Shown piece by piece: positions 5,946-48,383 of a stretch of 64,000 nt of DNA. Each line of letters starts with the position of its first letter. Position 1 is the stretch's first letter. Origin of the DNA: an uncultured Lentisphaerales bacterium (GTDB lineage: Bacteria > Verrucomicrobiota > Lentisphaeria > JABSQK01 > UBA12247); contig CALSSJ010000012.1 of assembly GCA_943788985.1 (NCBI GenBank), positions 222,290 to 286,289 of the forward strand. The letters run 5' to 3'. A program made the translations under genes and the position numbers. The notes below the pieces were generated by a model, which was not told the DNA's origin, made no database searches, and saw only the letters and a list, made by a program, of their open reading frames with translations.

Positions 5946-7370
5946 ATGAGCTCTCCTCTCCTTCATAAGCCCCTTTGGCGTCCCGCCGATCTCGGGCAGC
6001 CAATCCCTAGTTGGCCACATGCGACCAGTGTCTGCCTGCCGACCTGGGCCGATAATGTCGGCTACGAGGAGGGCGAGGAGCGTGTGCTCAGCCAGTTGCG
6101 CTGCGGTTATCCACGCTTTGTCCTACACCGCTGGACTGAGGAACTGCATCAGGTTGCAGCGACAACCCTGGGGACTGACATGGCCCGCGTATTTGGCGTC
6201 GAAGCCACTGCTTGCCGGGCCGCAGCGTATATCGGCGGTGCCACCGTGCGCGAGTTTCGCGGGGCCTGGGCCGTTGGGTTTGCGGAGTCCGCAAAAGAAA
6301 GGGCCAAGCAGTTTTGGCAGCACGGGGGCGAGGGGGTCTCCTGGCGCCAAGCGAGAGCCTTGCTGGACGGCGTGTATGTTGCGGAGTTCGCGGGCGCAGA
6401 CGCCCGGTCAGCGATTGCGGACCTTGCAGGCGTTCCAGCCGCTGATGTCTTTCTATTCAGCAGCGGCATGGCTGCCGTGTATGCGGCCTGGCGTTGCGTG
6501 ACCGACGGCGACGCGCCGACCATTCAGTTTGGCTTTCCGTACATCGACACGCTGAAGATTCAGCAGCGGTTTGGCAATGCCTCGCAGTTTTTTGCGAACT
6601 GCGCAACGGCCGACCATGTAGCCTTGGAGTCGCTGGAGAGCGCCTCGGCGGTGTTCTGCGAAGTGCCGGCCAACCCGCTGTTGCAGATGCCGGACGTGCC
6701 GCGTCTCGCGCGTTGGTGTCGCGAGCGGGGCGTGCCATTGGTGGTGGATGACACCGTTGCGACATTCGCAAATGTAGACCTGCTGCCGCACGCAGACCTG
6801 ATCGCTTCAAGCTTGACCAAGTTTGTCTCCGGGCTCGGAGATGTAATGGCTGGCTCACTGATTTTAAATCCTCGCTCCGCGCATTATGCACGGCTTCGCG
6901 CGCGGCTAGCTGCGGAGTTCGCACCGTCGCTTTGGTGCGAGGATGCGGCCGTGCTGCGCAGGAATGCCGCCGGTTTTCAGCAGCGGATAATGCGAATTAA
7001 TCGAAACGGCGAGGCGCTGGCCGACTTTTTGTACGGGCACCCCGAGGTCGCCCGCGTCTACTATCCCAAGTATCAGGACCGTGCGCACTACGATGCGTTG
7101 CTGCGCAAAGACGGCGGTTATGGCGGGTTGCTCTCGTTTCTATTGCGAACTCCGCAAGACGCCGAGGCCGTATATGACCGCCTGGAGGTTTGCAAAGGGC
7201 CCAGTTTAGGAACGGAATTTACCCTGGTCTCGCCCTACACCATTCTGGCGCATTACGATGAACTGGCGTTCGCTGAGTCATGTGGTGTATCCCGGTACTT
7301 GCTGCGTGTGAGTGCGGGAATCGAACCTGATTTGATCGATCGGTTTGAAAAGGCCTTAAGCCTCCCGTAG
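5946..7370 (+). CDS. Cys/Met-metabolism PLP enzyme, cystathionine gamma-synthase-like (long N-terminal type)
   Basis: [26 protein letters not shown] (PLP Lys), [14 protein letters not shown]. Confidence 0.85.
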
Positions 7371-7420: not shown

Positions 7421-8392
7421 ATGGGTTACTCAGCAGACAATTCTCTTTCCATCGGCAACACCCCACTGGTTAAAATTAACCGTCTTCCGGGCGCTGATAA
7501 GGCCACCATCCTGGCCAAGATTGAAGGCCGGAACCCTGCCTACTCCGTGAAGTGCCGAATCGGTTCGAACATGATCTGGGACGCAGAGAAGAGCGGCAAG
7601 CTCAAGCCCGGCGGCCATATCGTGGAGCCAACCAGTGGCAATACTGGGATCGCCCTGGCGTACGTGGCAGCTTCGCGCGGCTACAAGCTGACTATCACGA
7701 TGCCCGAGTCGATGAGCATCGAGCGTCGGAAAGTGCTGAGCGCACTTGGTGCAACCGTGGTGCTAACGCCTGCTGCGAAAGGGATGAAGGGCGCGATCAA
7801 CAAGGCTGCGGAGATCGCAGCAAGCTCCGATGAGTATTTCATGCCCCAACAGTTTGAGAATCCGGCCAACCCCGAGATTCATGTCAAGACCACTGGTCCG
7901 GAGATCTGGGCAGATACAAATGGCGAGATTGACATCCTGATCTCCGGCGTCGGCACCGGCGGTACGATCACCGGTGTGTCACGCTACATCAAGAAGGAGA
8001 AGGGCAAGGCGATTACTTCGCTCGCCGTAGAGCCGGAAGAGAGCCCCGTGATTACGCAGGCACTCGCCGGTCAGGATCTGAAGCCTGGACCCCACAAAAT
8101 CCAAGGAATAGGAGCCGGGTTCATCCCGACAAACTTGGACCTGTCCGTCGTGGACGGCGTGGAGCAAGTCACAAGCGCCGATGCGATTGCTGTCTCCCGT
8201 GAGTTGGCCCGCCAGGAAGGGCTCCTCAGTGGGATTAGCTGTGGCGCTGCCATGGCCGCCGCGTCCAAGGTCGCCCAGCGCCCAGAGAACGCCGGAAAGA
8301 CCATTGTGGTGATTCTGCCCGACGCTGGCGAGCGTTACTTGAGTGGCGCCCTGTTTGACGGCGTGTTCGGCGATGACGGAATGGCTCTCTGA
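7421..8392 (+). CDS. cysK: Cysteine synthase A (O-acetylserine sulfhydrylase)
   Basis: [48 protein letters not shown]. Confidence 0.97.
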
Positions 8393-8426
8393 GGACGGGG
8401 GAAACGGTGCCAGGGTCGGCGCTGAC

Positions 8427-9242
8427 ATGAAGCCTGTCCTCGGGATAACCGTTGAGCCCGATCAGGTCCATGACCTGATCGGGCAAGAGTCCTTCGGTCA
8501 GGCTTGGCATGGCTTCGAGCTGCCAGGCTTTGTGCTGGGAGACCGCACCTGGGATGAGACGCTCAGTCAGGTGCAGCGCGGGATCTCGCACGTACGCGAC
8601 ATCCTGCCGGACGACGTCGCCCGCTATCTGCCAGAGACGGATACCACGGCTCGCCGTGCGATTCTGGACTCTCTGGTGGAGCAGCTTAAGCTGACTGTTG
8701 ACTACGGGGTCAAGTGCTGTACGCTTGAACTGGGAATCGAGCGGATTGCTGTGGAACATCGGGAAGCAGCGTTGCTGGCGCGCGAGGACTTAATCAAGCG
8801 ACTGTTGCCGGTTGCGGATTCGCTCGATGTCTCGATCTGCCTGCCGCAACGCGAACCATGCACGCCACCGGGCGCGCATTTTGCGGAGTACGCGACCCAG
8901 TTGGTGACCACGCTTGATCACGACGCCTGCAAGCTGACGCTAAACGTGTTCCCCAATGAGTTGCACACACTGACGGTGACTGAGTTGGTGCAGCGCAGCT
9001 ATTCGCATGTAGGCGTCATCCGGTTTTTCTACGAGCCAGGTATCGGACTACGACTAGATCGCGAGCAGCAGCTAATCTGGGCGCGGGCATTACATTTACG
9101 CCGTTATGATGGGCTGGTGGTGTTCTGTCCGCTGGTCAAGGATCGTGACAAATTTTGCTTTGAGGCTGATCAACTGCTGGGGCTGGTTCAAGAGATCTGG
9201 CTGGAGCAGAACCGGGAGTTCGACACGGTCGATGGCACCTGA
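8427..9242 (+). CDS. Hypothetical protein, possibly xylose-isomerase-like TIM barrel
   Basis: Long ORF between cysK and the methyltransferase; alternating helix/strand pattern, ending ...YDGLVVF; start uncertain. Confidence 0.55.
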   Translation: MKPVLGITVEPDQVHDLIGQESFGQAWHGFELPGFVLGDRTWDETLSQVQRGISHVRDILPDDVARYLPETDTTARRAILDSLVEQLKLTVDYGVKCCTLELGIERIAVEHREAALLAREDLIKRLLPVADSLDVSICLPQREPCTPPGAHFAEYATQLVTTLDHDACKLTLNVFPNELHTLTVTELVQRSYSHVGVIRFFYEPGIGLRLDREQQLIWARALHLRRYDGLVVFCPLVKDRDKFCFEADQLLGLVQEIWLEQNREFDTVDGT

Positions 9243-9316
9243 CCTGGATCATTCCTGAGATCTCGTCGTGAGAGCTCAGGACTTAATCAGGCTAAATAAT
9301 TCTACAAGGAGAACGC

Positions 9317-10663
9317 GTGGCTAAATCACAACGTGGCAGCCTGACGCGTATACAATCACAGGCACGTACTGCTGCGCGGGCAGTGTACGAGGTATCTGCG
9401 GATGTATGGGCATCCGGCAAGCCAGCGGATCGGCTGCTGGCTGCTTATTTTCGGAAGCACAAGAAATATGGCGCCCAAGACCGGCGGCTGATCAGTGAGA
9501 CTTTCTTTGCGGTCTTTCGCTGGTGGGGCTGGTTGCGTCTGCTCGCTCGCGATGAGGCCGGGATGTGGGAGCGCGACGCCGAGCGTGCGACGCAGTCGGT
9601 CGAATGGCAGTCGATGCTGGTGGGGGCACATGTGCTGGATACGGTCGCGCTGCACCCGGTCGCGGCCGTGTGGAAGGATCGCGTTGCCGAGAAGCGCCGG
9701 ACTGCGTCCTACGTCACTTGTGTCGGAGACAAGCCGCTGATGGAGCGTGCCGAGATGATGGAAAGCCTGTTTGGCCTTTCGGTGAGGCCGCATGACTTGT
9801 TGCCGGATTGGTTGCGCGAGGAGACGGGTGAGATGTCCTACGACTTGCTGGAAATGCTGCAGCGGCGCCCGCCACTTTGGTTGCGGACTTCGCACAGCAC
9901 GGTCGATAAGGCGATCTCACGCCTCGCGGATGAGGACCTGACTGCGGAGGCATTTCCGGCGCTGCTGGGTGCGATGCGGCTGGTGCCTACCCGGGTGAAT
10001 CTATATGAGTCGGCAACATTCAAGGCTGGGCTGGTCGAGATTCAGGATCTGGGAAGTCAAGCAATTGGTGCTGCCTGCAGCCCTGCGCCGGGACAGCGCT
10101 GGTGGGATGCCTGCGCCGGGGCCGGAGGAAAATCGCTGCAATTGGCTAGCATGATGAATGAGAAGGGGTTGGTGCTGGCTACAGATATCCGGGAGTACAA
10201 ACTCACGGACCTGCGCAAGCGGGCCCGCCGCGCACACTTGTCCAACATTCAGGCTAAGCCTTGGGACGGCAAGGAAATACCAGGGAAGCCCGGGAGCTTT
10301 CATGGGGTGCTGGTGGATGCGCCATGCACGTGCACCGGCACCTGGCGACGGAATCCAGACGCGCGCTGGACGATGAAGCGCGAGGAGATCGCAGCCGCGG
10401 TTGCGACGCAGAGTGAGATTCTAGAGGCTGTCATCCCCGCCCTGAGGCAGATGGGCGTGCTGGTCTACGCGACCTGCTCGCTGTGTGATGCGGAGAACGA
10501 GGGCGTGGTTCAGGGATTTCTGGATCGGCATCCGGAGTTCTCGCTGGATCCGATGGTTCATCCGTTGCACGGGGGCATGACCGAAGGGATGTTTCGGGTT
10601 ACGCCAACCTCGTTCGACTGTGATGCGATGTTTGTTGCTCGGATGCGCCGTCTCCGAGATTGA
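9317..10663 (+). CDS. RsmB/NOP (Fmu/Sun) family RNA m5C methyltransferase
   Basis: IQDLGSQ, DACAGAGGKS, VLVDAPCTCTG..RRNPD, VYATCS; RBS AAGGAG before GTG. Confidence 0.92.
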   Translation: MAKSQRGSLTRIQSQARTAARAVYEVSADVWASGKPADRLLAAYFRKHKKYGAQDRRLISETFFAVFRWWGWLRLLARDEAGMWERDAERATQSVEWQSMLVGAHVLDTVALHPVAAVWKDRVAEKRRTASYVTCVGDKPLMERAEMMESLFGLSVRPHDLLPDWLREETGEMSYDLLEMLQRRPPLWLRTSHSTVDKAISRLADEDLTAEAFPALLGAMRLVPTRVNLYESATFKAGLVEIQDLGSQAIGAACSPAPGQRWWDACAGAGGKSLQLASMMNEKGLVLATDIREYKLTDLRKRARRAHLSNIQAKPWDGKEIPGKPGSFHGVLVDAPCTCTGTWRRNPDARWTMKREEIAAAVATQSEILEAVIPALRQMGVLVYATCSLCDAENEGVVQGFLDRHPEFSLDPMVHPLHGGMTEGMFRVTPTSFDCDAMFVARMRRLRD

Positions 10664-10740
10664 TTCGTCGCGCTGCTGTGTGGGCGCGATTTACCGAAAT
10701 CGAAATTGCGCAGTGGAAATCCCTGCGAAAAACGTATAGT

Positions 10741-10774
10741 CCTTAATTCCTGTAGGGGAATAGGAGTTTTAAGG
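10741..10774. promoter_or_regulatory. Imperfect inverted repeat, candidate Rrf2/CymR-type operator
   Basis: CCTTAATTCCTGT-AGGGGA-ATAGGAGTTTTAAGG immediately upstream of the Rrf2 ATG. Confidence 0.45.
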
Positions 10775-10776
10775 GC

Positions 10777-11187
10777 ATGCATCTTTCCTGTAAGGCAATC
10801 TACGGATTACGGATTCTGTACCACGTGGCTGAAGCGACGCAGCATGGCGGGCTTGCGCGCGGCGCGAAGCTGGCGGTGGCCTTGTCGATGAATGATTCGA
10901 GCCTGGAACAGATCTCGGGACTGTTGCGCAAGGCCGGGCTGATCAAGACGGTCCGTGGCCGCAATGGCGGCTACACGCTTGGGGCGCATCCTGAAGAGAT
11001 TACCTTGCTGAGGATTATTGAGGCGGTGGATGGTCCGCTATCGATGCTGGGAGATGTGAGCGGCGAACACTGTACAGACCCCGCCTGGGAAGTGCTATCG
11101 GAGACGATGGCCGCAAAGGCGGGGACTGTGACCTTGGCCAAGGTCCTAGCGGAGAACCGACCACAAATGAATGATTTTGTTATCTGA
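10777..11187 (+). CDS. Rrf2 family transcriptional regulator (CymR-like, no Fe-S Cys triad)
   Basis: YGLR, LEQI..LRKAGLI.TVRGRNGGY.L, ITL.II.AVDG; heads cysDN-metXW. Confidence 0.92.
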   Translation: MHLSCKAIYGLRILYHVAEATQHGGLARGAKLAVALSMNDSSLEQISGLLRKAGLIKTVRGRNGGYTLGAHPEEITLLRIIEAVDGPLSMLGDVSGEHCTDPAWEVLSETMAAKAGTVTLAKVLAENRPQMNDFVI

Positions 11188-11201
11188 TTCGAGGAGTAAT
11201 T

Positions 11202-12104
11202 ATGTCAACCTATAAGTTATCGCATCTGGATGCGCTGGAAGCTGAGGCGATCCATATCATGCGGGAAGTAGCGGCGCAGTTTGAACGGCCGGTTCTGCTG
11301 TTTTCCGGCGGGAAAGATTCTATTGTGATGGTGCACCTGGCGCTGAAAGCCTTTCGGCCCGCTCGGCTGCCGTTTCCGGTGATGCACGTGGATACCGGGC
11401 ACAACTTCCCGGAATTGATTGAGTATCGGGATAATCTGGTGCGAGATATGAACCTGCGTTTGGTGGTAGCCTCTGTGGAAGACGCGATCAATACAGGGAT
11501 TGCGGACCAGCCACCGGGAGAGATTAGCCGTAATCAGGCGCAGGCCCCGACGCTGGTGCATGCGATCGACGAGCATCGCTTTCAGGCTGCGTTTGGTGGC
11601 GGCCGCCGGGATGAAGAAAAGGCGCGGGCCAAAGAGCGCGTGTTCTCATTTCGTGATGCATTTGGCGGGTGGGAGCCCCGCAGCCAGCGGCCGGAGTTGT
11701 GGAACCTGTATAACGGTGGTATCCATGAGGGGGAGAACATCCGCGCCTTCCCGATTAGTAATTGGACAGAACTGGACGTTTGGCAGTATCTGGATCGCGA
11801 GAAAGTGCCGCTGCCAAGTCTGTATTTCTCCCACCAGCGCGAGGTGTTTATGCGCGATGGCCAGTGGCTGGCGACTTGCGAATATCTGCAACCGCGTGAT
11901 GGTGAGGAAGTTCGCACGATGCAGGTGCGTTGCCGTACGATTGGCGACATGGTCTGCACGGGCCTGGTGGAATCCGACGCGGCGACCGTCGCGGACATTA
12001 TCGATGAAGTGGCAGCCACTCGGGTCTCAGAGCGCGGCGGGCGGGCCGATGACAAGTTTGCAGAAGACTCGATGCAGAAGCGTAAAGAGAAGGGGTATTT
12101 CTAA
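11202..12104 (+). CDS. cysD: Sulfate adenylyltransferase subunit 2
   Basis: LFSGGKDS, VDTGHNF, RRDEEKARAKER, QRPELWNLYN, KEKGYF. Confidence 0.97.
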   Translation: MSTYKLSHLDALEAEAIHIMREVAAQFERPVLLFSGGKDSIVMVHLALKAFRPARLPFPVMHVDTGHNFPELIEYRDNLVRDMNLRLVVASVEDAINTGIADQPPGEISRNQAQAPTLVHAIDEHRFQAAFGGGRRDEEKARAKERVFSFRDAFGGWEPRSQRPELWNLYNGGIHEGENIRAFPISNWTELDVWQYLDREKVPLPSLYFSHQREVFMRDGQWLATCEYLQPRDGEEVRTMQVRCRTIGDMVCTGLVESDAATVADIIDEVAATRVSERGGRADDKFAEDSMQKRKEKGYF

Positions 12105-13420
12105 TGAGCACGTGGCTTACAGATCATAAAGTTGAGCTGCTGCGGTTCTCGACGTGCGGAAGTGTCGATGATGGAAAGAGCACGCTGATTGGGCGGTTGC
12201 TTTACGATAGCAAGAGCCTGTTTCAAGACCAGCTGGATGCCTTGGAGAAAACCCGGGAATTTCTGGGTGACCAAACGGTGAATCTCGCGAATCTGACCGA
12301 TGGCCTGCGTGAAGAGCGCGAGCAAGGGATCACGATCGATGTGGCATACCGCTTTGTGGCGACACCGAGGCGAAAGTTCATCGTGGCTGATACACCAGGG
12401 CATGTGCAGTACACGCGCAACATGGTGACCGGCATGTCGACTGCGAATCTTGCAGTGATTCTGATCGATGCCCGGCATGGCGTCATTGAGCAGACGCGGC
12501 GCCACGCCTATATCGCCTCGCTGCTGGGGACGCCTCACATCGTGGTGTGCGTGAATAAAATGGATCTTGTCGACTACTCGCAAGATGTATTTGAGGCGAT
12601 CCGCGAGGATTTCGATAACTTCGCCACACGCCTGCAGACACAGGATATTCGCTTCATTCCGATGAGCGCCCTGAACGGGGACAATGTGGTCGATAAGTCG
12701 GATAAGATGCCGTGGTACGATGGCCCAGCTTTGCTGAGTTTCATGGAGAAACTTCATATCGCCAATGATGGCAACCTGAACGATCAGCGATTTCCGGTGC
12801 AGTGGGTGGTGCGTCCGCAGACCGAGGAGCACCATGATTTTCGTGGGTACGCTGGCCAGGTCGCTGGGGGCGTGTTTCGGCCTGGTGATGACATTGTTGT
12901 GCTGCCATCCGGGGTGCGGTCCAAGGTGGCTTCGATTCACCTGCATGATCAGGAGTTGGACGAAGCGTTCGCGCCGCAGTCCGTCACGATTCAGCTGCAG
13001 GATGATGTGGACATCAGCCGGGGTGATCTGCTGGTCGGTCCAGATAGCGCACCGTACGTAAGTGGAGAGGTCACGGCCATGGTCTGCTGGCTTCATGAGA
13101 AGCCGCTACGCGTGGGCGGCCGGTATCGTCTGATGCAGAACTCGAACGAGACGCGTGCCATCGTTCGCGAGTTGGAGTATTGCGTGAATGTCAATACGCT
13201 GCAGGAAGACGACGATTCGGACTCGCTGCGTTTGAACGAAGTCGGCCGTTTGGTCATCAAGACGCAGAAGCCCCTCTGCTATGACGAATACAGACGCAAT
13301 CGCGTAACCGGCTCATTTATTCTAATTGACGAGTCTACAAACGCGACTGTCGCGGCGGGAATGCTGCTCCGGCCGCCAATTCCACCGCCCCCAGTCGAGT
13401 TTGCGGACTACGCAATTTGA
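12104..13420 (+). CDS. cysN: Sulfate adenylyltransferase subunit 1 (no APS kinase domain)
   Basis: CGSVDDGKSTLIGRLL, EREQGITIDVAY, DTPGH, NKMD, GSFILIDE; overlaps the cysD stop. Confidence 0.97.
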   Translation: MSTWLTDHKVELLRFSTCGSVDDGKSTLIGRLLYDSKSLFQDQLDALEKTREFLGDQTVNLANLTDGLREEREQGITIDVAYRFVATPRRKFIVADTPGHVQYTRNMVTGMSTANLAVILIDARHGVIEQTRRHAYIASLLGTPHIVVCVNKMDLVDYSQDVFEAIREDFDNFATRLQTQDIRFIPMSALNGDNVVDKSDKMPWYDGPALLSFMEKLHIANDGNLNDQRFPVQWVVRPQTEEHHDFRGYAGQVAGGVFRPGDDIVVLPSGVRSKVASIHLHDQELDEAFAPQSVTIQLQDDVDISRGDLLVGPDSAPYVSGEVTAMVCWLHEKPLRVGGRYRLMQNSNETRAIVRELEYCVNVNTLQEDDDSDSLRLNEVGRLVIKTQKPLCYDEYRRNRVTGSFILIDESTNATVAAGMLLRPPIPPPPVEFADYAI

Positions 13421-13437: not shown

Positions 13438-15204
13438 ATGCGCGATCTGGTCGAAACGCAGTACTTGGACCTGCAACTGCCGGAGGAAGGTCTAGAGCTT
13501 TCCTCTGGCAAGCGGCTCTCTGCTGTCCGGATTGCGTACGAAACTCACGGGGTGCTTGCGGAGTCCGCAGATAATGTCGTGTTCATCTGCCACGCGCTGA
13601 CTGGAGACTCGCATTGTGCGGGCTACCACAGCGACGACCCGAAGTCTCGTGGCTGGTGGGAGCCGCATCCGGATTCTGATCAGCCGCGTCTGATCGGGGT
13701 CGGGGCGGCGATTGACACCAAACGGTTCTACGTGGTCTGTGCCAATATTCTTGGCGGGTGTGCGGGGACGACTGGGCCGAAGTCCAATAACCCGGAAACC
13801 GGAGAGCCATACGGCATTGAATTCCCGTTGGTTACGATCAAGGACGTGGTGCGCGTTCAGCGGCTGTTGCTGGACCAGCTTGGCGTGAAGCGTTTACACG
13901 CGGTGGTGGGCGGCTCGATGGGTGGGATGCAGGCGCTTGAATGGGCAATTTCCTTCCCAGAGTACGTGGCGCGTTGTGCCTGTATCGCGACGGCAGCAAG
14001 CCTCTCGCCGCAGGCACTGGCGTTTGATATCATCGGGCGGCAGGAGATCGAGAACGATCCGAACTGGAATGGGGGGCATTACTACGGGCAGGCCATTCCT
14101 AGGGCCGGGCTGTCGCGCGCTCGCCAAATCGGCCATGTGACCTATCTCAGCGACCAGTCGATGTACGCCAAGTTTGGGCGCGACGAGCATGATCGGCCGA
14201 GACCCGAGGACAGTAGTAAATTCTCGACCAGCTTTGAGGTGGAGTCGTACCTGAACTACAATGGCAACAGCTTTGTGGATCGATTCGACGCGAACTCCTA
14301 TCTCTATATCAGCCGGATGATGGATATGTTCGATCTGGCGAAGGAGCACGGATCTTTGCGCGAGGCATTGGCGAAAACCGCATCGAAGTTCCTGATCATC
14401 TCGATCGAATCGGATTGGCTGTTTCCGCCGCCCCAGCAGCTCGAACTGCTGCACGAGTTGCTAGCGCTTCGTCGGGAGGTGAGCTACCTGAACATGAACT
14501 CGCACTTTGGGCATGACGCGTTCCTGATCGAGTACGATCTGCTGTGTCCGGCCCTGGGGGCCTTTCTCACGGGCGAGGAACCTCGCAAGCCGGCCCCTGT
14601 GAATCGGCAGGATCTTAATGTGATCAAGTCGATGGTTCCGCGAGGAGAGCGTATTTTGGACTTGGGTGCCGGTGAGGGAAACATGATGCTGGCTGTCCAG
14701 CGCGCGACCGGCAGCACGGGAATCTGTTTAGACCTTAGCTATGGCAAGGTTGTCAGCTGCATGGAGAAGGGCCTGAGTGCCATCCAGTTAGACGCAGACA
14801 GCGGCCTAGAGTTGATCTCTGATGATGCGTTCGACTGCGTGATGACCAACCAGACCATCCAACAGTTGCACAGTGCACTTGGCGCGATGAAGCAGATGTT
14901 GCGAATTGGGCAACGTGCGATTGTGAGCTTTCCCAACTTTGCCTACTATCGCTATCGCTTGGCATTGCTCTACAGCGGGAAGTTGCCCGTCTCCGATGAC
15001 CTGCCATTTGAATGGTACGATACGCCGAATATCCATCTGGTTACCCTGACAGATTTTGTCGAGCTTTGTGAGAAGAACGAGATTCGCATCAATGCGCTTG
15101 AGTGTGCAGCCGATCACTGGCTGGGTCGAGCGCTGTTGCAGTGCGGTATGCGCAGTGCCGGGGCCGAGCGAGGGATCGCCTGCATCGGGAAAGCGAACGG
15201 CTGA
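13438..15204 (+). CDS. metX: Homoserine O-acetyltransferase fused to MetW
   Basis: CHALTGD, GGSMGG, RFDANSY, GHDAFL, then MetW-like DLGAGEG, SFPNF, LPFEWYDTPNIH. Confidence 0.92.
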   Translation: MRDLVETQYLDLQLPEEGLELSSGKRLSAVRIAYETHGVLAESADNVVFICHALTGDSHCAGYHSDDPKSRGWWEPHPDSDQPRLIGVGAAIDTKRFYVVCANILGGCAGTTGPKSNNPETGEPYGIEFPLVTIKDVVRVQRLLLDQLGVKRLHAVVGGSMGGMQALEWAISFPEYVARCACIATAASLSPQALAFDIIGRQEIENDPNWNGGHYYGQAIPRAGLSRARQIGHVTYLSDQSMYAKFGRDEHDRPRPEDSSKFSTSFEVESYLNYNGNSFVDRFDANSYLYISRMMDMFDLAKEHGSLREALAKTASKFLIISIESDWLFPPPQQLELLHELLALRREVSYLNMNSHFGHDAFLIEYDLLCPALGAFLTGEEPRKPAPVNRQDLNVIKSMVPRGERILDLGAGEGNMMLAVQRATGSTGICLDLSYGKVVSCMEKGLSAIQLDADSGLELISDDAFDCVMTNQTIQQLHSALGAMKQMLRIGQRAIVSFPNFAYYRYRLALLYSGKLPVSDDLPFEWYDTPNIHLVTLTDFVELCEKNEIRINALECAADHWLGRALLQCGMRSAGAERGIACIGKANG

Positions 15205-16571: not shown

Positions 16572-17368
16572 ATGTTCTTATGGCCCTCGCAAAGGAGAGC
16601 CTGTTTTGATCGTCGATGACGATTCCGCGCTGCGTCGAATGCGGGCGCTGATGGTGGGAACTGCGCCAAATTTTGAGGTGAGTACGGCTGCGGATGCCAG
16701 CACGGCCTTGGAGCATCTACGGGACAATCGCGTGGATATTGTGCTGGCGAACGTGATTATTCCTGTCACTGGCGGGATGAAGGTCGGGGCGCAGGTTTAT
16801 CTAGTGAAGCCAGTTAAGCGAGAGAAGCTATTGATCGCGCTTTGCTGGACGCGATCGCGGTCACCTGCGATTGGGGTTACCGGAGAGATCGGGCCGTAGC
16901 AAGTGCTGCGCTTGGTGTACTGAAGGCAACTCACGCCGCCGGGATTGTGCACGGAGACTTCGAACCAGCCAACATCATGCTGGAGCAAGGCGGGCGAACT
17001 GTACTGGCGGATTATGGCTTGGCTCAACTGCCGGGTGAGTCTCGCGAGTAGATGACGAGCACGCCGTTCTACTTCTCACCCTAGCGATTTACCACCGGAG
17101 TGACCACCAGGCAGAGCGATGTTTTTCGTTTTGGACGGTGGCTTTTGAGCTGCTGGCCGACCGCCGGCCATCTGACTCGGCGTCGTTTACGCAACTGAGC
17201 GGTCAGATTGTGAGCGAGGAGCCGAGCTGGCCCGATCTGTCTCCAGTGTTTCCGGCGCGGGATCAGGATGTATTGCGCAGTTTTCTGGCGAAGAAACCTG
17301 CGGATAGGCCGGTGGTTCGCGACGTGTTTGTTCCCCTGCGTGATGCTGAATCTGGGATCGGCGCTTGA
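16572..17368 (+). pseudogene. Receiver plus Ser/Thr kinase remnants
   Basis: VLIVDDD..YLVKP, then GIVHGDFEPANIML..LADYGLA, with stops and frameshifts. Confidence 0.6.
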
Positions 17369-25727: not shown

Positions 25728-27959
25728 ATGGAATTCAATTCAATTCAGGATCAAATCAACAGCGCCGAGCGCTTTGAGGAGATCATTTTTGATCTTGAGG
25801 AAGAGATCAAGGGGCTGCTTTGCGCCGAGCGCTTGACCTTCTATAAGCGCGACTCCAACGGGACCGAGATCGTGTCTTGGTATGGGGCCGACCTGGAAGA
25901 AGAGATTAGGCTGCCGCTTTCGCCCACATCGATCGCCGGATATGTGGCCATGAGTAAGCGCTCCGTAAAGATCGATGACGTGTACGATCCAGAGGAACTG
26001 GCGGCCGTTCATCCTAAGCTGCGCTTCGACTACAGCTACGATCAGGAATCAGGCTACGTGACCCGGGCCATGCTGGTAGTGCCTATTGCCCACAAGGACA
26101 CTCTCCTGGGCGTGATGCAGGTGATCAATCACATCGGCATCGAGAGCTTTAGCGCCGAGGACATCAGCCACGCTGAATCCGTGGCAGACCTGATCGCCCA
26201 GCGCTTTCGTTATGAATTCAAGGCCACAGTTGGCCCCTATGATTATCTGCTGAAAAACAAGAAGCTCACGCTTGATCAGCTCGAGGAAATGGAGCAGCTT
26301 GCCGTCGAACGTGACCTCTCAATCTCCTCGCTTTTGCAGACGGAGTGTGCCATCACTCATGATGAAATAGGCCAGTCATTCGAGCAGTACTACCAGGTGC
26401 CGTTCTTCAAGTACAATCCCGACTTGGAGCTAGATACCGCGATCCTTGACCAGCTGAACAAGGGCTATCTAGCGCAGAACTTCTGGCTGCCGCTGGCCTA
26501 CAGTCAGGACAAGGCGATCGTACTCATTGACGATCCCAACGATGCCGAGCGCATCATGGAGATCCAAAACGTTCTTACAGCCCAGAGCTATGAGTTTCTA
26601 GTCGGCACGCAGGATGACATCCTGCGCTTTCTCGGCTTCATCGAGGAACCGATCATTTCCGAGCCGGAAATGGACCTCGATGACCTGATCGCCAAGCTGG
26701 AGAGTAAGGCCCAGGAGGCGCTGGATGGTGATCAGGATGTGGTCAGCATCGACCAGACCAATCCCGAAGAGGGCGTGGTCGTGCAACTGGTGAACCGTAT
26801 CATCTACGACGCCGTGGCCATGAACGCATCCGATATTCACGTGGAGCCCAGCAAAGGCCGGCTGTCTGGCACCGTGCGCATGCGCGTGGACGGCGTCTGT
26901 CGCGTAGTTCTTGAGGTCCCCAACCGCCACGTGCGCGCGGTAGTCAGCCGCATTAAGGTTCTCTCCCGTTTGGACATCGCCGAGCGTCGCAAACCGCAGG
27001 ATGGCAAGCTTGCCGTCCGCATGGGGGGACGTCCACTTGAGCTACGAATTGCCACATTGCCGACCATCTGTGGCGAGAGTGTGGTCATGCGTATTCTCGC
27101 GCAGGGAGACGCGCTTCCCTACGACAAACTTGGCTTTTCGAAGCGTAACTATGAGATGATCGATACCTCGCTGGCGCACCCACACGGGCTTGTGCTTGTG
27201 GTGGGGCCAACCGGGTCAGGAAAGACCACCACCTTGCACGGGTTGCTCGGCTATTTGAACACGCCAGAACGCAAGATTCTTACGGCCGAGGATCCGGTGG
27301 AAATCACGCAGCCCGGCATGAGCCAGGTGCAGGTGCAGCCCAAGATTGGCTACACATTTGCCATTGCGCTGCGCGCATTCCTGCGTTGTGACCCGGACAT
27401 CATCCTCATCGGTGAGATGCGTGATCATGAGACCGCCAGCATGGGCGTAGAAGCCTCCCTGACCGGCCATCTGGTGTTCTCCACATTGCATACGAACTCT
27501 GCACCCGAGACCGTCGTGCGTCTGCTTGAAATGGGGCTAGACCCGCTGAACTTTGCTGACGCTCTGGTCTGCGTGGTTGCCCAGCGGCTGATGCGGACCC
27601 TGTGCAAAAACTGCAAAGAAGAGTACACACCCACGCAGGACGAGTTCGACCGGCTTGCGAACCTCTACGGTCTCGAATACTACCCCGAGTTGAACATTGA
27701 CCTGACCAAGCTGAAGCTGATGCGGGGTGTGGGCTGCGAGGAGTGTGGGACGACTGGCTACCGTGGGCGTTGTGGCGTGCATGAAGTGCTGGTTAATTCC
27801 AAGGAACTTAGCGCGTTGATTGCCGCCAACACTCCTGCAAAGATTATTCGCGAGTTGGCCGTGAAAGAGGGGATGCGAACCGTCCAACAGGACGGTGTGA
27901 TCAAAGTCTTCGAAGGGCTCTCCTCTCTCGACCAACTGCGGAAAGTCTGCGGGGATTAA
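25728..27959 (+). CDS. GAF domain plus GspE/PilB-type secretion ATPase
   Basis: GAF (SIAGYVA, YVTRAMLVVPI); ASDIHVEP, GPTGSGKTTT, AEDPVE, DPDIILIGEMRD, TGHLVFSTLHTN, CKNC/CEEC. Confidence 0.93.
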   Translation: MEFNSIQDQINSAERFEEIIFDLEEEIKGLLCAERLTFYKRDSNGTEIVSWYGADLEEEIRLPLSPTSIAGYVAMSKRSVKIDDVYDPEELAAVHPKLRFDYSYDQESGYVTRAMLVVPIAHKDTLLGVMQVINHIGIESFSAEDISHAESVADLIAQRFRYEFKATVGPYDYLLKNKKLTLDQLEEMEQLAVERDLSISSLLQTECAITHDEIGQSFEQYYQVPFFKYNPDLELDTAILDQLNKGYLAQNFWLPLAYSQDKAIVLIDDPNDAERIMEIQNVLTAQSYEFLVGTQDDILRFLGFIEEPIISEPEMDLDDLIAKLESKAQEALDGDQDVVSIDQTNPEEGVVVQLVNRIIYDAVAMNASDIHVEPSKGRLSGTVRMRVDGVCRVVLEVPNRHVRAVVSRIKVLSRLDIAERRKPQDGKLAVRMGGRPLELRIATLPTICGESVVMRILAQGDALPYDKLGFSKRNYEMIDTSLAHPHGLVLVVGPTGSGKTTTLHGLLGYLNTPERKILTAEDPVEITQPGMSQVQVQPKIGYTFAIALRAFLRCDPDIILIGEMRDHETASMGVEASLTGHLVFSTLHTNSAPETVVRLLEMGLDPLNFADALVCVVAQRLMRTLCKNCKEEYTPTQDEFDRLANLYGLEYYPELNIDLTKLKLMRGVGCEECGTTGYRGRCGVHEVLVNSKELSALIAANTPAKIIRELAVKEGMRTVQQDGVIKVFEGLSSLDQLRKVCGD

Positions 27960-35876: not shown

Positions 35877-36311
35877 GACAGGCGCATCAGGAGCGACAAG
35901 AAGTTGCCAGTCCATCTCCGGATTTTTGGAGAAATTGCAGTGCTGGTAAGTGTTGCACGCGCGGCGATTATTCTCACTGAAGTTCCGTTCAAATAAGGCA
36001 TCGGGCCGGTCTTGCTGGTGCTGTTGACTCTACGCTTGGTACATTCAGGTGACGACCAAGGCGAGGCTAGCTCGACTTCTTGGGCCACACCCGATCCTAC
36101 GTGGGGTGTTATCAGGGAAACGACGGCGGTGCCGGAGCAGCGACCCTTGCCATCCGCTACAGCGGCGAACGCCCTGCCGCCAACGGCCACTCGATGCAAC
36201 TCAGCGTGAATGGCGCGCTCTCGTCGCCTGAATCGACTGCGGCGGGGCTCTTTTCTCCGGCGATCACGCCATCCTGATTATCAAAGACCATCAGAAATAG
36301 GAATTTTACCC

Positions 36312-36755
36312 ATGATGAAAAACTACCGAAACTGCGTGGCTTTGGCCGCGGCCCTGACATTGCAACCTCTTTTGGGGCAGGGCGCCCAAACGGAGTCCAT
36401 CCCGGAAAACCCCAACGTGATTTTCGTCATGTGTGATGACATGGGCTATGGGCAATTGGGCTGCTACGGTCAGAAGGTCATTAAGACGCCCCGGATCGAC
36501 CAAATGGCGAAAGAGGGGCTGCGTTTGACGGATTATTATTACGGGACCTCCGTCTGTGCCTCTTCGCGCTGTTCCCTGATGACGGGCCAGCATGTGGGGC
36601 ACGCCCATATTTGCGGGAATTACGAAATTATGAGGAGCGTGGAAAACGAGTCGGGTCAGCTTCCGATCCCGGACGAAACCATTACGGTAGCCGAAAAGAT
36701 GAGTGAGGCGGGTTACTCGACGGCCTTGATCGGCAAGTGGGGCTTGGGGGCTTGA
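36312..36755 (+). pseudogene. Truncated S1 sulfatase (N-terminal third)
   Basis: PNVIFVMCDDMGYG, CASSRCSLMTG, ends right after GKWGLG. Confidence 0.8.
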
Positions 36756-36836
36756 CCATTCCCTGTCGGCACAAGCGTTCCGGTCTCCTTGTTCGGCACG
36801 ACGGTGCGAAATGGTACACTTCGGGGCAGCATCACC

Positions 36837-36865
36837 TTGACTGGCGGCTAATGCGATCGCATAAT
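36837..36865 (+). promoter_or_regulatory. Sigma70-like promoter
   Basis: TTGACT-17 nt-CATAAT upstream of the gene at 37001. Confidence 0.55.
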
Positions 36866-37000
36866 ATGTACGAGGAGACGATCGGGTATAAGTTTCCTGA
36901 CTGATTCTGACAACGCATCTCTGGGACATGGTTTCAGACAAGACCCGCCTGGATTTGTGTTAGCAATAACCCCATTTAGACTCATTGAGGTGTATCACCA

Positions 37001-38326
37001 ATGGCTGTTTCGACATCAATTCTTGCGGATAAACTGCACGAGTACCCACAACAAGACGTGATCGATGGGGCCAACGGAGCATCGGATTCGATTCTGGATG
37101 ACTGCCTGAATCAGAACGATGGCGTATTGCAGCTTCTGCACCGCTATGCGGGGCGAACGTTTTGTACGCCAGGTAAACGCCTTCGCCTGGATGCTCAATC
37201 TTACTATCCGGATTATATGGGCGGGACGGGTCTCGATGAGCTCTGGATGTGCTGTACCGTTCCAATTGTGACTGGCGTCATCGACACGCGTACGCAGAAG
37301 GCTCCGTTTCGTGAAGGCGAAGCACACGTCCTCACGCCCAGCGGGCAAGTTATCTCACTTCAGGATTTGATTGCCGCCAATCCTAAAGCCGTCATGGGGG
37401 AGAAGGTTACGGCCTTTGCGGAGTCAGTGTTCGGTGAGGCAACTTGGCCGATCGTTTCAAAGAAGTTCGACAATCTGAATCCGATTCCGAATCATCTTCA
37501 CTGGGCAAAGTGGGAAGTCTACGACATTAATTCGTTTGACAATCCCGGAGTTAGTCCGTCGCATTATCACACGACCGCCATGGGATTATATCCGTTCGTG
37601 ACGAAGGATCAGTTTCTCGCTTGTATGAAGAGCTGGGGCCAGGGCGAGTATAACGGGATCCGGCACTTGGCCCCGCACGTGATGATGCAGCTCGATAATG
37701 GTTTCGTAATGCCGAACGGTGTACTTCACTCACCGACGGATCTTTGTACGCACGAGTTGCATGTCACGATGGATGAGCATTTCCTCGCCGAGGACCTGAC
37801 GCTTGATGGCCGTATCGGCGCTGCGGATGCGTTCTACGCATGTCGGGAAGAGGATTATCCGAAGGACAAACATGAAGACTGGGAGTACCTGGTTGATCAG
37901 TTTGACTTCGCAGCTAACCAGGACCCTGACTTTGTCCTGAAGAATTCCCGACCGACGATCGTTGCCGAAGAATTCGCAGGCGAAGGCGTTGATGCAAAGT
38001 GGATTGTCTACGGTGAGGTCCTTGGCGAGCAGCGGTGTTCAATTCTCCGACTCACCATAGAGCCTGGCAGCAAGACCAACTTTCGTCCTGAGAGTCCCGC
38101 GCTGTTCCATACAAATGGTGGAAACGGTCGCGTCGGCAAGCTCGAAGTACGCTACAATCAGGGTATGATTCTCGGCGAGATCTATCCGGAGGTCGGATTT
38201 ATCACTCAGGCCGCGCTTGACCGCGGCGGGGTCGAGATAGCGAACACGGGAACTGAACCATTCGTGTTGACCTTCGACTTTCCGCAGGGTGCCCATTCCC
38301 AAACGCCTGGTCTTGCGGCGAACTAG
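37001..38326 (+). CDS. Cupin-like protein (type I phosphomannose-isomerase-like)
   Basis: 441 aa; ELW, KKFD..PIPNHLH..KWE, GVLHSP, C-terminal cupin-like IANTGTEP; RBS GAGG. Confidence 0.65.
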   Translation: MAVSTSILADKLHEYPQQDVIDGANGASDSILDDCLNQNDGVLQLLHRYAGRTFCTPGKRLRLDAQSYYPDYMGGTGLDELWMCCTVPIVTGVIDTRTQKAPFREGEAHVLTPSGQVISLQDLIAANPKAVMGEKVTAFAESVFGEATWPIVSKKFDNLNPIPNHLHWAKWEVYDINSFDNPGVSPSHYHTTAMGLYPFVTKDQFLACMKSWGQGEYNGIRHLAPHVMMQLDNGFVMPNGVLHSPTDLCTHELHVTMDEHFLAEDLTLDGRIGAADAFYACREEDYPKDKHEDWEYLVDQFDFAANQDPDFVLKNSRPTIVAEEFAGEGVDAKWIVYGEVLGEQRCSILRLTIEPGSKTNFRPESPALFHTNGGNGRVGKLEVRYNQGMILGEIYPEVGFITQAALDRGGVEIANTGTEPFVLTFDFPQGAHSQTPGLAAN

Positions 38327-38383
38327 CCGCTAACTGATAGGAAATCGTTTCCGGCACGCCCAAGATATGCGGACAGCGTGACG

Positions 38384-38570
38384 ATGCGATATGCTGTGGT
38401 AATTGAGCTAGCTGGCTCGAACTGTTCCGCCTATGTGCCGGATTTTATCGGTGGCGTTTCCACGGGGTGAACTCTGGCGAAAGCCAAGCGCAACAGTCAA
38501 AATGCGATTGTGTTTCACTTGGATGGGATGCGTGAGGATAAGGCTCTGATCTCCAACCTCGAACAGTCTG
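38384..38570 (+). pseudogene. HicB-family antitoxin remnant
   Basis: MRYAVVIE..SNCSAYVPD..GGVSTG*TLA..NAIVFHLDGMRED with in-frame TGA at 38468. Confidence 0.7.
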
Positions 38571-38686
38571 GGAGTATGTTGAGTCGTGACTGTCACCCAC
38601 GACATGCTGCCAATGCGATCCGTGCAATCGCAGAAGCCGGCGTTGACATATCCAAATCAAAATCGGGATCGGTATCGAACATTACG

Positions 38687-39020
38687 GGATTAGGACCTGA
38701 AAAACTGGATGTGCATCGAGTTGCGATCGACTATATAGCTTGTGTTTATAATCAAGCCGGGGACTTGAAGCGGGCGCCAGTCTATCCCGCTGAACATTGC
38801 CGTAGGCGACGGTAAGACGGCCCCCGCAGACCACCGGCGCTACTTTGAGATTGCTCGCGGGGGGACACTGGAATGTGCCGCCAGCCAGGGTGTCTCGGTG
38901 GTCGGCAAGGCATTGGGCCTAGACGAGAGTCGAAAGCACAAAGCCGAGCTGGATAGAATCGTGGCAATGCTTAGCCGACCCGGTGGTCGCCGATACCTTG
39001 TTGAAGAGGAGGTCGTACGA
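38687..39020 (+). pseudogene. Four-helix-bundle protein remnant
   Basis: EKLDV.RVAI, SIPLNIAVGDGK, RRYFEIARG, LECAA, ELDRIVAMLSR across frameshifts. Confidence 0.7.
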
Positions 39021-39657
39021 TCATGCGTCGCATCACGACAGCGAGATCGAGCTTAGGGCCCGCGCGGGATTAAGGTTACATTTTTTCGGGAGCGCCGAAT
39101 GGTCAGATGGCAGGCGCGTTGGCGGACTATCACTACCAGATCAACGGCATGGTCACGCTAGACCGCAAGGTTGTGAAGGTAGAGGCAGCGCAGCTGCGAG
39201 CGATCAACCAGCTTTTCAATGATGATCCATGACCCCAATGGCACTGACTTAAGCCGACCTTGAGCATTTGAAAAAGACTCGATCAGGCAGCGGTGTACAC
39301 CGTAGTGGAGCAGATCCTGTGTGGTTCGGAGAAGTATCCCCTTCGGCACTTCCCGCTGCGTGACACCGCCAAGAAGAAGCGTTGGGTCTCCGATCTGCGT
39401 CCGTGTTCTCGTCGCTGCAATGCCATCGCAACTCGGCTTAGAGAGCCAAGCTACCTGGTTTACTCATGGAATTCCTTCGAATGCGAACATGTGGGGGCAA
39501 ATAACTGTGCCGAATAACCTCCGAGATCAAACTTGCTGCGGGGTCAGTATCGCGGGTAGGGCCCAAGATTCTGTATTCTCGGTTAGGTAGCTGGAGAAGT
39601 GGTTAGTTCAAGAGTAGGTTGGGAATTTGCACTCGGCAATCACGGAAGAAGGTAACT

Positions 39658-39945
39658 ATGGCCAAAGTTCAAGACATTCTTGTGTTTTTTCAAACGGCTC
39701 CGGCACTCGACGTCAGGCCCTCTGCCTGGGCGAGATATGAGGCCTCAAAGGGATCAGGAGTCGGGGACTTGGTCGAAGAAGGCCAGCCGCCTTATCGGAA
39801 TGCGATGGCCGCGATGCGTGATGGCTGGCAGGTTATCCAGATGAGCGAGTTTAAGCAACGCACCGAAGCTGAGGGCTATGAATTGGGAGCCTTTCCCTAT
39901 CAAACGGTCCTGTCACGCTTCAGTGAGATGCAACCAGAATCATAG
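39658..39945 (+). CDS. Small hypothetical protein upstream of a PhyH-like gene
   Basis: 95 aa, RBS GAAGG, PPY..AMAAMRDGWQVIQ. Confidence 0.7.
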   Translation: MAKVQDILVFFQTAPALDVRPSAWARYEASKGSGVGDLVEEGQPPYRNAMAAMRDGWQVIQMSEFKQRTEAEGYELGAFPYQTVLSRFSEMQPES

Positions 39946-39958
39946 AAAGGTCTGCCCG

Positions 39959-40774
39959 ATGGAACATCTCATCTCGTCTCAAGACATGGCTCGCTTTGTC
40001 GCCTCGGGATTCTTGCGCTACGATCACATGGTACCCGAGGACCTGTGTCACGCCTGTAGAGAGGAGATGACCAGCTTCGGCGGCTATCGTCCTGTGGGGA
40101 CACCATTCGAGGAAACCTGGCCCAAGGATGGCGCCTTGGGAGAGCTCTTTCGCCTGCCGAAAGTGGCCGGTCTCATCCACTCTCTGGTCGGCCCAGATCC
40201 GCTCTATGACCACCATGCGGCGCATCTGGTCAAGGCGCGTACGATGCGCGGCCCCAACACGCATCAGGATTCGGTGATTGATTTTCGAAAGAATTACTTT
40301 GATATTCAGCTGTCATTTTTTCCTGTGGACACGCCCGATGAAATGGGGGGGACGTTTATCGTGCCAGGCTCGCACTTTCGCAACGTCAGAACCGGCGAGA
40401 TTAATGCCTACCAACATGTTCTCGGCAAGACTTGGGCTACCTGTCCGGCGGGCACGTTTTATGTCTGGAATACTCGCTTATGGCACGGGGCGCGGAGCAA
40501 TCATACAGACCAAGACCGCTATATGTTTAAGTTGCGTCTCAATCCGACGCAGCCGCAGGTTGGGCACTTCGATATGTCCGCGCTCGATGATCCGGAGATC
40601 CCTCGGATTCTGAACACGCGTCACGGCTGGGAAGGAAATGAGATGCGCTACGAACTGATGAAGCGCGTGGAGTTATGGCGCTACGTGTCCGCCCAGCCGG
40701 ACTACGACATCGGTGAGCGGTTCATGCGCCGGCGCGAGTACCAGCCACAGCTGGCAGACGATCAGCGCGGCTAA
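39959..40774 (+). CDS. Phytanoyl-CoA dioxygenase (PhyH) family Fe(II)/2OG oxygenase
   Basis: HQD (HxD), GGTFIVPGSH, LWHGA..N...R. Confidence 0.85.
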   Translation: MEHLISSQDMARFVASGFLRYDHMVPEDLCHACREEMTSFGGYRPVGTPFEETWPKDGALGELFRLPKVAGLIHSLVGPDPLYDHHAAHLVKARTMRGPNTHQDSVIDFRKNYFDIQLSFFPVDTPDEMGGTFIVPGSHFRNVRTGEINAYQHVLGKTWATCPAGTFYVWNTRLWHGARSNHTDQDRYMFKLRLNPTQPQVGHFDMSALDDPEIPRILNTRHGWEGNEMRYELMKRVELWRYVSAQPDYDIGERFMRRREYQPQLADDQRG

Positions 40775-40788
40775 CTCGGCGGCCTCAC

Positions 40789-41610
40789 TTATGGGGAGCT
40801 CCGCCGCCGGTAGTGTTGGGGCGTGATGTGATAGCGGGCTCGAAAGGCGCGTGAGAAGTAGAAGGGACTGGAGTAACCCGTTGCCGTGGCAACTTCCTTT
40901 ATGCTCATCGAACTGCCATTGAGCAACTGCCGGGCTAGGCTCATTCGTCGCCGTTGAATGTACTCGAACGGTGTGATCCCGATGGCCTCGCGAAACAGAC
41001 GATGAAAAGAATTTGGGGCCATGCCAACGGCTTTGGCGACTTGCTCTAGAGACGGATTGGACAGGTTGTGCTGGTGCATGAATTCCAGGGCTGGCTGAAG
41101 CCGCAGCGTGGTCTGGGTGTCAACATTTGGGACACCCCTGGCGGTGAGGGCCGCCCCGATGACTGAGCTGAGCGCGCCATGGACCAGGCACCGTGCCCCC
41201 GGCGCGGCATCTTTGCGGATTCCGCGGCCTAAATCCGGAGAGCCGAACACAGTACCAAAGGCAGTCAAGTGCGCAGGTGCCAGCCCGATGTCCGCGCATA
41301 TCAGAGGCGAAACGCCAGGTAAGCCATCCAGCAGATAGTCGAGGTAGGGTGACTCGGCTGTGAAATGTAACCAATGGATCGTCAGGCGAAGGGAGCATTC
41401 CCGGCTTTGGACCCGATGGGCGTTGATCAGGTAGGCATAGCCAGGCTGCAACTCGTATTCGCTGCCGTCCGCCCGCATTATCCCAGTGCCAGAATCGGGT
41501 ATGTAGAGTTTAAAGCAGTCATCCTTGCGCAGAACCGTCAGCGACCAGTCCGGTGTGCACTCAGCATAGCCCCCAGTAAGCAGTCGCAGATTAAAATCTT
41601 CGAGAATCAT
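40789..41610 (-). CDS. AraC family transcriptional regulator
   Basis: N-terminal cupin (WLHF); FHRLFR..GITP, IKEVA..GYSSPFYFSRAFR. Confidence 0.93.
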   Translation of the reverse strand: MILEDFNLRLLTGGYAECTPDWSLTVLRKDDCFKLYIPDSGTGIMRADGSEYELQPGYAYLINAHRVQSRECSLRLTIHWLHFTAESPYLDYLLDGLPGVSPLICADIGLAPAHLTAFGTVFGSPDLGRGIRKDAAPGARCLVHGALSSVIGAALTARGVPNVDTQTTLRLQPALEFMHQHNLSNPSLEQVAKAVGMAPNSFHRLFREAIGITPFEYIQRRRMSLARQLLNGSSMSIKEVATATGYSSPFYFSRAFRARYHITPQHYRRRSSP

Positions 41611-41854
41611 CGTATCCGGCCTTTAACGGGGGAGATTCAGAGGGCAGGGGATGTTGTGATCGTGCATTTATTGGATGATATCGTAGTGTTGACGGTATGG
41701 CGCCATGAGCATAGATTGTCTATATTATACGAAGCCGTTTCTGGTCTGCCAACTGATGTGTCCGGGCGAAGTTTGTCGAGGCTGGCGCGCGGTTTCGTGA
41801 ATCCAGTTCCCTCGCGAGTGATGGGATGGACCCGAATTGCCTCGGAAAGACGAC

Positions 41855-48252: not shown

Positions 48253-48289
48253 GCGATGAGGCGGCGCAGAGAATGGGACGTGACCGGAT

Positions 48290-48354: not shown

Positions 48355-48383
48355 TCTCCCAAACCAACAGGACACACCGCACC

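Follow-up and report, generated by a model that had tools for sequence, protein, structure and literature searches.

A conserved C-terminal tail on CysN, the GTPase subunit of sulfate adenylyltransferase, as a probable client of CysK docking in Verrucomicrobiota

The cysN gene and its C-terminal extension

We examined a 64,000-nucleotide stretch of DNA (the window) from an uncultured Lentisphaerales bacterium of the phylum Verrucomicrobiota (assembly GCA_943788985.1, contig CALSSJ010000012.1, positions 222,290 to 286,289), with a focus on a short extension at the C-terminus of CysN, the GTPase subunit of sulfate adenylyltransferase (ATP sulfurylase). Its proposed receptor is CysK, O-acetylserine sulfhydrylase A, which is encoded in the same gene cluster. 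The cysN gene is a single open frame at 12104-13420 on the forward strand (+) and encodes a protein of 438 amino acids. The protein belongs to TIGR02034, which it matches over residues 13-421 with 560.3 bits (cut-off 336.1 bits). By Pfam, it consists of GTP_EFTU and GTP-eEF1A_C domains, and the GTP-eEF1A_C match also stops at residue 421. The protein end reads ...STNATVAAGMLLRPPIPPPPVEFADYAI, followed by a TGA stop at 13418-13420. Because TIGR02034 and GTP-eEF1A_C both end at 421, residues 422-438 (LRPPIPPPPVEFADYAI; 13367-13417, +) constitute an extension past the family body, made up of a Pro-rich linker and then D-Y-A-I. The extension lies outside all CysN and EF-Tu-type models.

The proposed anchor in the active site of CysK is the terminal D-Y-A-I, read directly from the sequence together with the TGA stop (13406-13420, +). 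The last residue is an Ile with a free carboxylate (...DYAI, then TGA), as expected of a protein that docks on CysK. We counted such endings across the whole genome, using stop-bounded frames of at least 120 amino acids. Thirty of 11,249 frames end in [FYW]-x-I and 8 of 11,249 end in [DEGNS][FYW]-x-I, two of these eight being CysN and an Rrf2-family regulator from the same operon. The CysN tail is beyond chance.

We also generated an AlphaFold2 (AF2) monomer model of full-length CysN, built on a 66-sequence alignment. Its mean predicted local distance difference test score (pLDDT) is 80.7, and residues 422-438 are without secondary structure. Residues 421-430 have a pLDDT of 79 and residues 431-438 one of 51, with values below 50 for residues 435-438. 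The model fits an exposed C-terminal end. A rigid linker is plausible from the sequence, because the prolines sit at fixed, conserved positions.

The cysK gene is located at 7421-8392 (+). CysK scores 450.9 bits against TIGR01139 (cut-off 350.95 bits), while the CysM models give 273-291 bits and remain under their own cut-offs. Against the E. coli cysteine synthase A chains 8zyc_A and 5j43_E, the E-value is 2.1e-134. No other CysK- or CysM-type gene scores over the cut-off in this genome, which is 83.6% complete. The carboxylate loop T71-S72-G73-N74-T75 and the Q144-F145 pair are both present, and T71, S72, N74, T75, Q144, and F145 do not vary across 27 CysK sequences from the class. These invariant residues match those listed for PaCysK and SaCysK in the available portions of the corresponding studies (PMC12895370, bioRxiv 2024.09.19.614015). 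An earlier note on this DNA, made from the sequence alone, had placed a tail after the normal CysN end and a cysK gene in the same cluster; the frame and the TIGR02034 and Pfam ends show the first placement to be correct to the base, and the TIGR01139 score over cut-off at 7421-8392 confirms the second.

Conservation and phylogeny of the tail

The earlier note had named conservation in orthologues beforehand as one of two tests on which its proposal could fail, and the tail proved to be conserved in three samples. Within the same order, unfused CysN bears the tail in 12 of 14 genomes; in the other two, the gene is cut by a contig end or only a fused CysNC is present. The CysN endings in this order include EGYVI, DGYVI, TDYVI, SDFVI, and EEYVI. 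Among the top 120 homologues from a collection of 5.8 billion proteins, 74 are extended (an extension being about 12 or more residues). Of these 74, 66 end in [FYW]-x-I and 67 end in Ile, and the eight without aromatic-x-Ile look like decayed tails. The third sample was drawn from the phylum and comprised 150 further genomes, 48 of them with CysN at E <= 1e-90, from which all 36 loci of the unfused type were taken. Here 15 of 36 CysN proteins are extended, and all 15 extensions end in [FY]-x-I. The linkers in this sample diverge widely, for example EPKRAIPNTDDA, PPKQVVRADEI, and RAVGDDTTTST. The remaining 21 CysN proteins stop at ...AGMI(I/L) with no extension.

In the named genome collection, none of the 71 loci outside Verrucomicrobiota has the tail; one of them, L103, is truncated at a contig end. 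Tail-bearing records in this collection are titled Verrucomicrobia, Verrucomicrobiia, Opitutaceae, or Pedosphaera, and two tail-bearing protein clusters are named Kiritimatiellia. The tail-bearing CysN clade comes mainly from Verrucomicrobiota.

For the phylogenetic trees, the tail columns were taken out and the CysN body alone was used. In the FastTree phylogeny, 97 of 101 tails fall into one clade of 106 members with a support of 99, and in the IQ-TREE phylogeny (102 rows) the support for the tail-bearing clade is 99/100. The nine members of the clade of 106 that are without the motif all have decayed extensions. Four tails that end in EFAI have unrelated linkers and lie outside the main clade. 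Forcing them to join it costs 58 log-likelihood units (approximately unbiased test, p-AU 0.019), although the EFAI group was named only after the tree had been inspected. This group is probably a second, convergent gain in which the ending alone is shared.

One of the decayed extensions in the main clade is that of L107, a metagenome-assembled genome from Verrucomicrobiota. There (5950-6125), the frame contains the CysN tail motif ...PEYDDFAI and then reads on for 27 codons, through either a lost stop or an assembly error.

Similarity to CysK-docking peptides

Several proteins are known to dock on CysK through their C-termini. CysE, CymR, and CdiA-CT occupy the active site of CysK with a C-terminal Ile, this residue accounts for about 80% of the binding energy, and O-acetylserine (OAS) competes for the peptide site (available portions of PMC9547175 and PMC12895370). 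The peptide DYVI, from the serine acetyltransferase (SAT) of A. thaliana, is an OAS-competitive inhibitor with a Ki of 4 µM and an IC50 of 7-8 µM; it inhibits two heterologous cysteine synthases, from L. major and A. thaliana (PMC3388911, in the part available). In S. aureus, CysE (...QDDYII) binds CysK in crystals and by surface plasmon resonance, and CymR (...GYMFYI) binds CysK at 25 nM and is also seen in CysK crystals (bioRxiv 2024.09.19.614015, in the part available). CdiA-CT uses GYGI (PMC12895370). In the accessible text of that 2026 paper, the Ile-tailed partners of CysK are listed as CysE, CymR, CdiA-CT, and EGL-9.

The terminal residues of CysN match these experimentally CysK-binding peptides, namely DYVI (PMC3388911), DDYII and MFYI (bioRxiv 2024.09.19.614015), and GYGI (PMC12895370), as far as the available portions of these sources describe them. 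The residues that precede the terminal Ile follow the validated peptides, with Tyr or Phe at position -3 and Asp, Glu, or Gly at -4 in 63 of 66 tails. The most frequent last-four strings among 101 tails are GYVI (19), DYAI (17), DYVI (11), EYVI (9), and EYII (7), with others making up the remainder; DDYII ends one of the 101.

The closest parallel is the cysteine synthase complex. The tails in that complex, which are flexible, likewise terminate in an invariant Ile, in many cases preceded by an aromatic residue at -3 and acidic residues ahead of that (DYVI in A. thaliana, DDYII in S. aureus, and DFSI in M. tuberculosis), and the receptor is again a canonical CysK. By analogy, OAS competition would be expected for the CysN tail, and CysK would be blocked while bound. 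However, the tail is carried here by the GTPase subunit of ATP sulfurylase, which catalyzes the first step of the pathway, rather than by the maker of CysK's substrate, and the CysN tail sits on a Pro-rich linker of fixed length. A second parallel is found in the CdiA-CT(EC536)-CysK and EGL-9-CYSL-1 pairs, in which unrelated proteins gained a ...GYGI or Ile tail for a CysK-type active site (PMC12895370, in the part available), and the GYVI that ends 19 of the 101 CysN tails resembles that of CdiA-CT. The clients in those pairs are a toxin and a prolyl hydroxylase, whereas CysN is a core enzyme of the same pathway as CysK. Coupling would therefore be metabolic feedback rather than hijacking.

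An Rrf2 regulator with the same tail type

The operon is headed by an Rrf2-family, CymR-like regulator (10777-11187, +; Pfam Rrf2 E = 1.6e-23), which ends in ...PQMNDFVI. This CymR-type tail (NDFVI) was absent from the earlier note. The regulator is followed by cysD, the catalytic subunit of sulfate adenylyltransferase (11202-12104, +; NF003587 443.4 bits, TIGR02039 420 bits), cysN, and a metX-metW fusion of 588 amino acids that combines homoserine O-acetyltransferase and MetW (13438-15204, +; NF001209 464 bits, TIGR02081 187 bits). The Rrf2 gene and cysD are separated by 14 nt, cysD and cysN overlap in an ATGA at 12101-12104, and cysN and the fusion gene are 17 nt apart. Based on these short gaps and the overlap, Rrf2-cysD-cysN-metXW look like one operon. 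The metX-metW fusion is also the next gene after cysN in the loci of nine relatives (L007-L014, L023).

The best NCBIfam equivalog-type match of the regulator is the CymR model NF047409, but at 68.2 bits it falls under the 195-bit cut-off and outside the equivalog. It contains two Cys alone, residues 5 and 98, and thus has no three-Cys cluster motif. In an exhaustive representative search, which replaced a word-based search that had returned 3 proteins, 88 of the 150 best representative Rrf2 homologues end in [FYW]-x-I, including the MFYI and MYYI types. By analogy, the regulator likely works like CymR, which it resembles in its tail, its context, and the missing three-Cys motif, without being a CymR equivalog. 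In the CymR-CysK pairs of B. subtilis and S. aureus, an Rrf2 protein without a three-Cys motif likewise has an aromatic-x-Ile end and sulfur-assimilation neighbors. The regulator in the window differs in being a distant relative from another phylum, and in sharing its operon with a second tailed client, CysN.

Tailed regulator, cysK, and tailed cysN genes are grouped in at least five families, in several arrangements. For example, three loci of family f3 have the order Rrf2 (PDYII)-cysD-cysN, and all five loci of family f5 read Rrf2 (PEYVI, PDYVI, or PDYII)-cysK-PAPS-reductase-like gene-cysD-tailed cysN, where PAPS is 3'-phosphoadenosine 5'-phosphosulfate. L171 has cysK-Rrf2 (NYSI)-cysD-cysN (EYII), and L188 has cysD-cysN (DYAI)-Rrf2 (MYFI)-cysK with a convergent cysE (DWAI). 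The Rrf2 endings in further families are NYSI, DYTI, MYYI, and MYFI. Within the stretch fetched around each tail-bearing locus of the phylum sample, a tailed Rrf2 gene is a neighbor in 9 of 15 cases and cysK in 3 of 15; around the tail-less loci, a tailed Rrf2 or cysK neighbor occurs in 0 of 21. The raw association between a CysN tail and a tailed Rrf2 or cysK neighbor is 12/35 versus 1/103, a table that undercounts family f5 (the flanks were too short), with five loci to add. No inverted repeat was reported upstream of the Rrf2 gene in 10640-10800, and no common motif that could be a shared operator was seen by eye upstream of the Rrf2 genes across families.

Three more genes surround cysK. 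Upstream is a Cys/Met-metabolism pyridoxal phosphate (PLP) enzyme of 474 amino acids (5946-7370, +; PF01053 E = 3.8e-41), which ends 50 nt before the cysK ATG and whose best NCBIfam match, BesB-like, reaches 230.8 bits, far under the 800-bit cut-off. An RsmB-like methyltransferase (9317-10663, +) is a further member of this sulfur amino acid cluster. Between it and cysK lies an open reading frame at about 8427-9242 (+), for which no Pfam or NCBIfam match was found. In a protein atlas it resembles xylose-isomerase-like TIM-barrel proteins, with a structural TM score of 0.78 to the PF01261 cluster.

SAT and fused CysNC in tail-bearing genomes

The SAT of the window genome ends in ...HLGSHI. In the phylum sample, SAT proteins use the same motif class as the CysN tails, with endings such as DWVI, DWAI, and AFQI. 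In the order sample, 12 genomes have the CysN tail only, four have both the tail and a SAT Ile, two have the SAT Ile only, and four have neither. In the phylum sample, SAT ends in aromatic-x-Ile (D-W-x-I or similar) in 10 of the 15 tail-bearing genomes and not in the other five, and a SAT Ile is missing from 16 of the 20 tail-less genomes, among them every one of the 14 from a single family. Pooled over both samples, the CysN tail and the SAT Ile occur together in 14 genomes; 17 genomes have just the tail, 6 just the SAT Ile, and 20 have neither, such that SAT is without a C-terminal Ile in 17 of the 31 genomes with a tailed CysN. Fairly read, these counts suggest that a lineage employs CysK docking either on several clients or not at all.

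The family just mentioned, f21 (L178-L182, L184, L191-L196, L199, L201; SAT loci L222-L240), is without an Ile end on both CysN and SAT in 14 of 14 genomes, and CysK docking may be absent from this lineage.

The window genome has a second CysN on another contig, a fused CysN-CysC that ends in ...GGFFASS and has no tail. This CysNC paralogue presumably serves PAPS synthesis. The tailed CysN shares its GTPase body and the translational coupling of cysD and cysN with ordinary CysN of the E. coli type. However, ordinary unfused CysN ends in ...AGMI(I/L) without an extension, and the CysNC fusions of Pseudomonas and Mycobacterium continue into adenosine 5'-phosphosulfate (APS) kinase. In four of 20 fused CysNC proteins (L022, L032, L242, L252), the APS-kinase domain is followed by a final ...EYCI or ...EYYI; a docking-type ending may also occur on fused CysNC.

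Alternative explanations for the tail

The tailed CysN is a probable new client of the known CysK docking mechanism. A number of observations weigh against this. The CysN tail is essentially a single-origin trait; with one origin and three to four independent contrasts, the neighbor association is without statistical power. Six tail-bearing verrucomicrobial loci from the named collection have no Rrf2 and no cysK neighbor within 7-kb flanks. A hand-over of the docking tail from SAT to CysN as a general rule, hinted at by the order sample, was ruled out by the phylum sample and the pooled counts. The conservation of the CysK residues is not specific to peptide binding, since the same residues are catalytic. 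Within CysN, part of the linker may pack on the protein itself or its domain III, because residues 421-430 are modeled with a pLDDT of 79. Lastly, the extension is conserved over its full length, with Pro at -15, -11, -10, and -8, an acidic residue at -7, and an aromatic residue at -6 (in a set of 66 tails that had been selected for their ending), and its length is nearly fixed. This whole-length conservation is more than a simple tether would need, so a different or additional binding surface could exist.

Such a surface could belong to another receptor, for example CysD, an APS or PAPS reductase, or a PDZ-type reader of C-termini, in which case the likeness to CysK tails would be coincidental. 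We consider this unlikely, even though the extension is conserved over all 17 residues, does not vary in length, and keeps another aromatic at -6, which is more than the four to five residues known to matter for CysK peptides (bioRxiv 2024.09.19.614015 and PMC12895370, available portions), and a PAPS-reductase-like gene lies between cysK and cysD in family f5. Some CysN tails are identical to validated peptides, and the same motif class is found on SAT and on CymR-like Rrf2 proteins, both types proven to dock on CysK, in genomes shared with the tailed CysN and frequently within one gene cluster with cysK; no candidate alternative receptor was identified. The fixed linker length, the conserved prolines, and the fairly confident model of residues 421-430 (pLDDT 79) could also reflect an intramolecular or intersubunit element of CysD-CysN, such as a heterodimer stabilizer or a cover for the GTPase site, with no outside partner. 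This is distinctly improbable given that most CysN proteins work without a tail (0 of 71 non-verrucomicrobial loci have one, and 21 of 36 phylum loci are without). Moreover, conservation is strongest at the extreme C-terminus, which is unstructured in the monomer model (pLDDT below 50), and the convergent EFAI group shares the ending but not the linker. There is very little to be said for a tail without specific function, either a leftover linker, as from CysN-CysC fission, or a degradation signal. It is true that the junction of CysN-CysC fusions falls at the same point, that the tail has decayed in eight or nine clade members, and that the L107 frame reads 27 codons past the motif. Nevertheless, the linkers of CysNC fusions are unrelated to the tail, the terminal Tyr or Phe and the Ile are kept in a clade of 55-65% identity while the linker varies, and decay in a few lineages is what the loss of a functional trait looks like.

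Proposed role of CysN docking

If the CysN tail docks on CysK, the 17-residue extension would serve as a flexible Pro-rich tether that presents the C-terminal aromatic-x-Ile, which in this CysN is D-Y-A-I. With its free carboxylate, the terminal Ile would enter the active site of CysK in the manner of the CysE, CymR, and CdiA-CT tails. As docking uses the OAS site, binding would block CysK, and OAS would release the docked CysN tail. Sulfate activation by CysD-CysN would thereby be coupled to the OAS and sulfide status of the cell. Because the Rrf2 regulator at the head of the operon bears the same tail type, the likeliest design would be a single sensor, CysK, that operates at two levels, acting on sulfate activation via transcription through the CymR-like regulator and via the enzyme through CysN. 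The direction of the effect is more doubtful. By analogy with CymR, ATP sulfurylase could conceivably be restrained under sulfur sufficiency with low OAS, and freed when OAS accumulates.

On a wider scale, we tentatively suggest that CysK could be the hub of three clients, SAT, the CymR-like repressor, and CysN, in a large part of Verrucomicrobiota. In the 17 of 31 sampled tail-bearing genomes with an Ile-less SAT, CysN might then be the enzyme partner of CysK, in a "sulfate-activation/cysteine-synthase complex" acting alongside or in place of the classical complex. The available text of the 2026 paper suggests that CysKs whose SAT is without the Ile, as in P. aeruginosa, possibly have alternative partners (PMC12895370). 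In the tail-bearing genomes, CysN is a concrete candidate for this role.

Should this hold, one signal, OAS versus sulfide, would gate entry into sulfate assimilation, whose first step consumes ATP and GTP, at both the enzyme and the promoter. The feedback known to act on sulfate activation in bacteria is mainly transcriptional, through CysB and CymR. Linking the energy-costly first step directly to the last enzyme of cysteine synthesis would add a new layer of control to the pathway, and the short list of natural CysK clients would be widened. The earlier note's remark that this tail appeared to be undescribed for CysN agrees with the full-text literature, in which neither a CysN-CysK interaction nor a CysN tail was found (subscription-only papers and supplements were outside the scope).

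Further observations in the genome and window

A glutaredoxin-2-like protein with a CPYC motif, encoded on another contig of the same genome (C13, about 16600-17190, +), ends in ...SLYDDFAI. Its gene is one of four plausible real genes in the genome that end in [DEGNS][FYW]-x-I, and the protein may be a further CysK client.

Elsewhere in the window, a cluster of sulfatase and alpha-L-fucosidase genes at 36210-50790 is consistent with the use of sulfated fucans. Some of these genes appear to be split, including a 181-amino-acid sulfatase N-terminus (36210-36755), two sulfatase halves (48384-49109 and 49287-49955), and a partial fucosidase (49894-50790). The window also encodes a type II/IV secretion ATPase (T2SSE) at 25728-27959, which has an N-terminal GAF domain and an MshEN domain.

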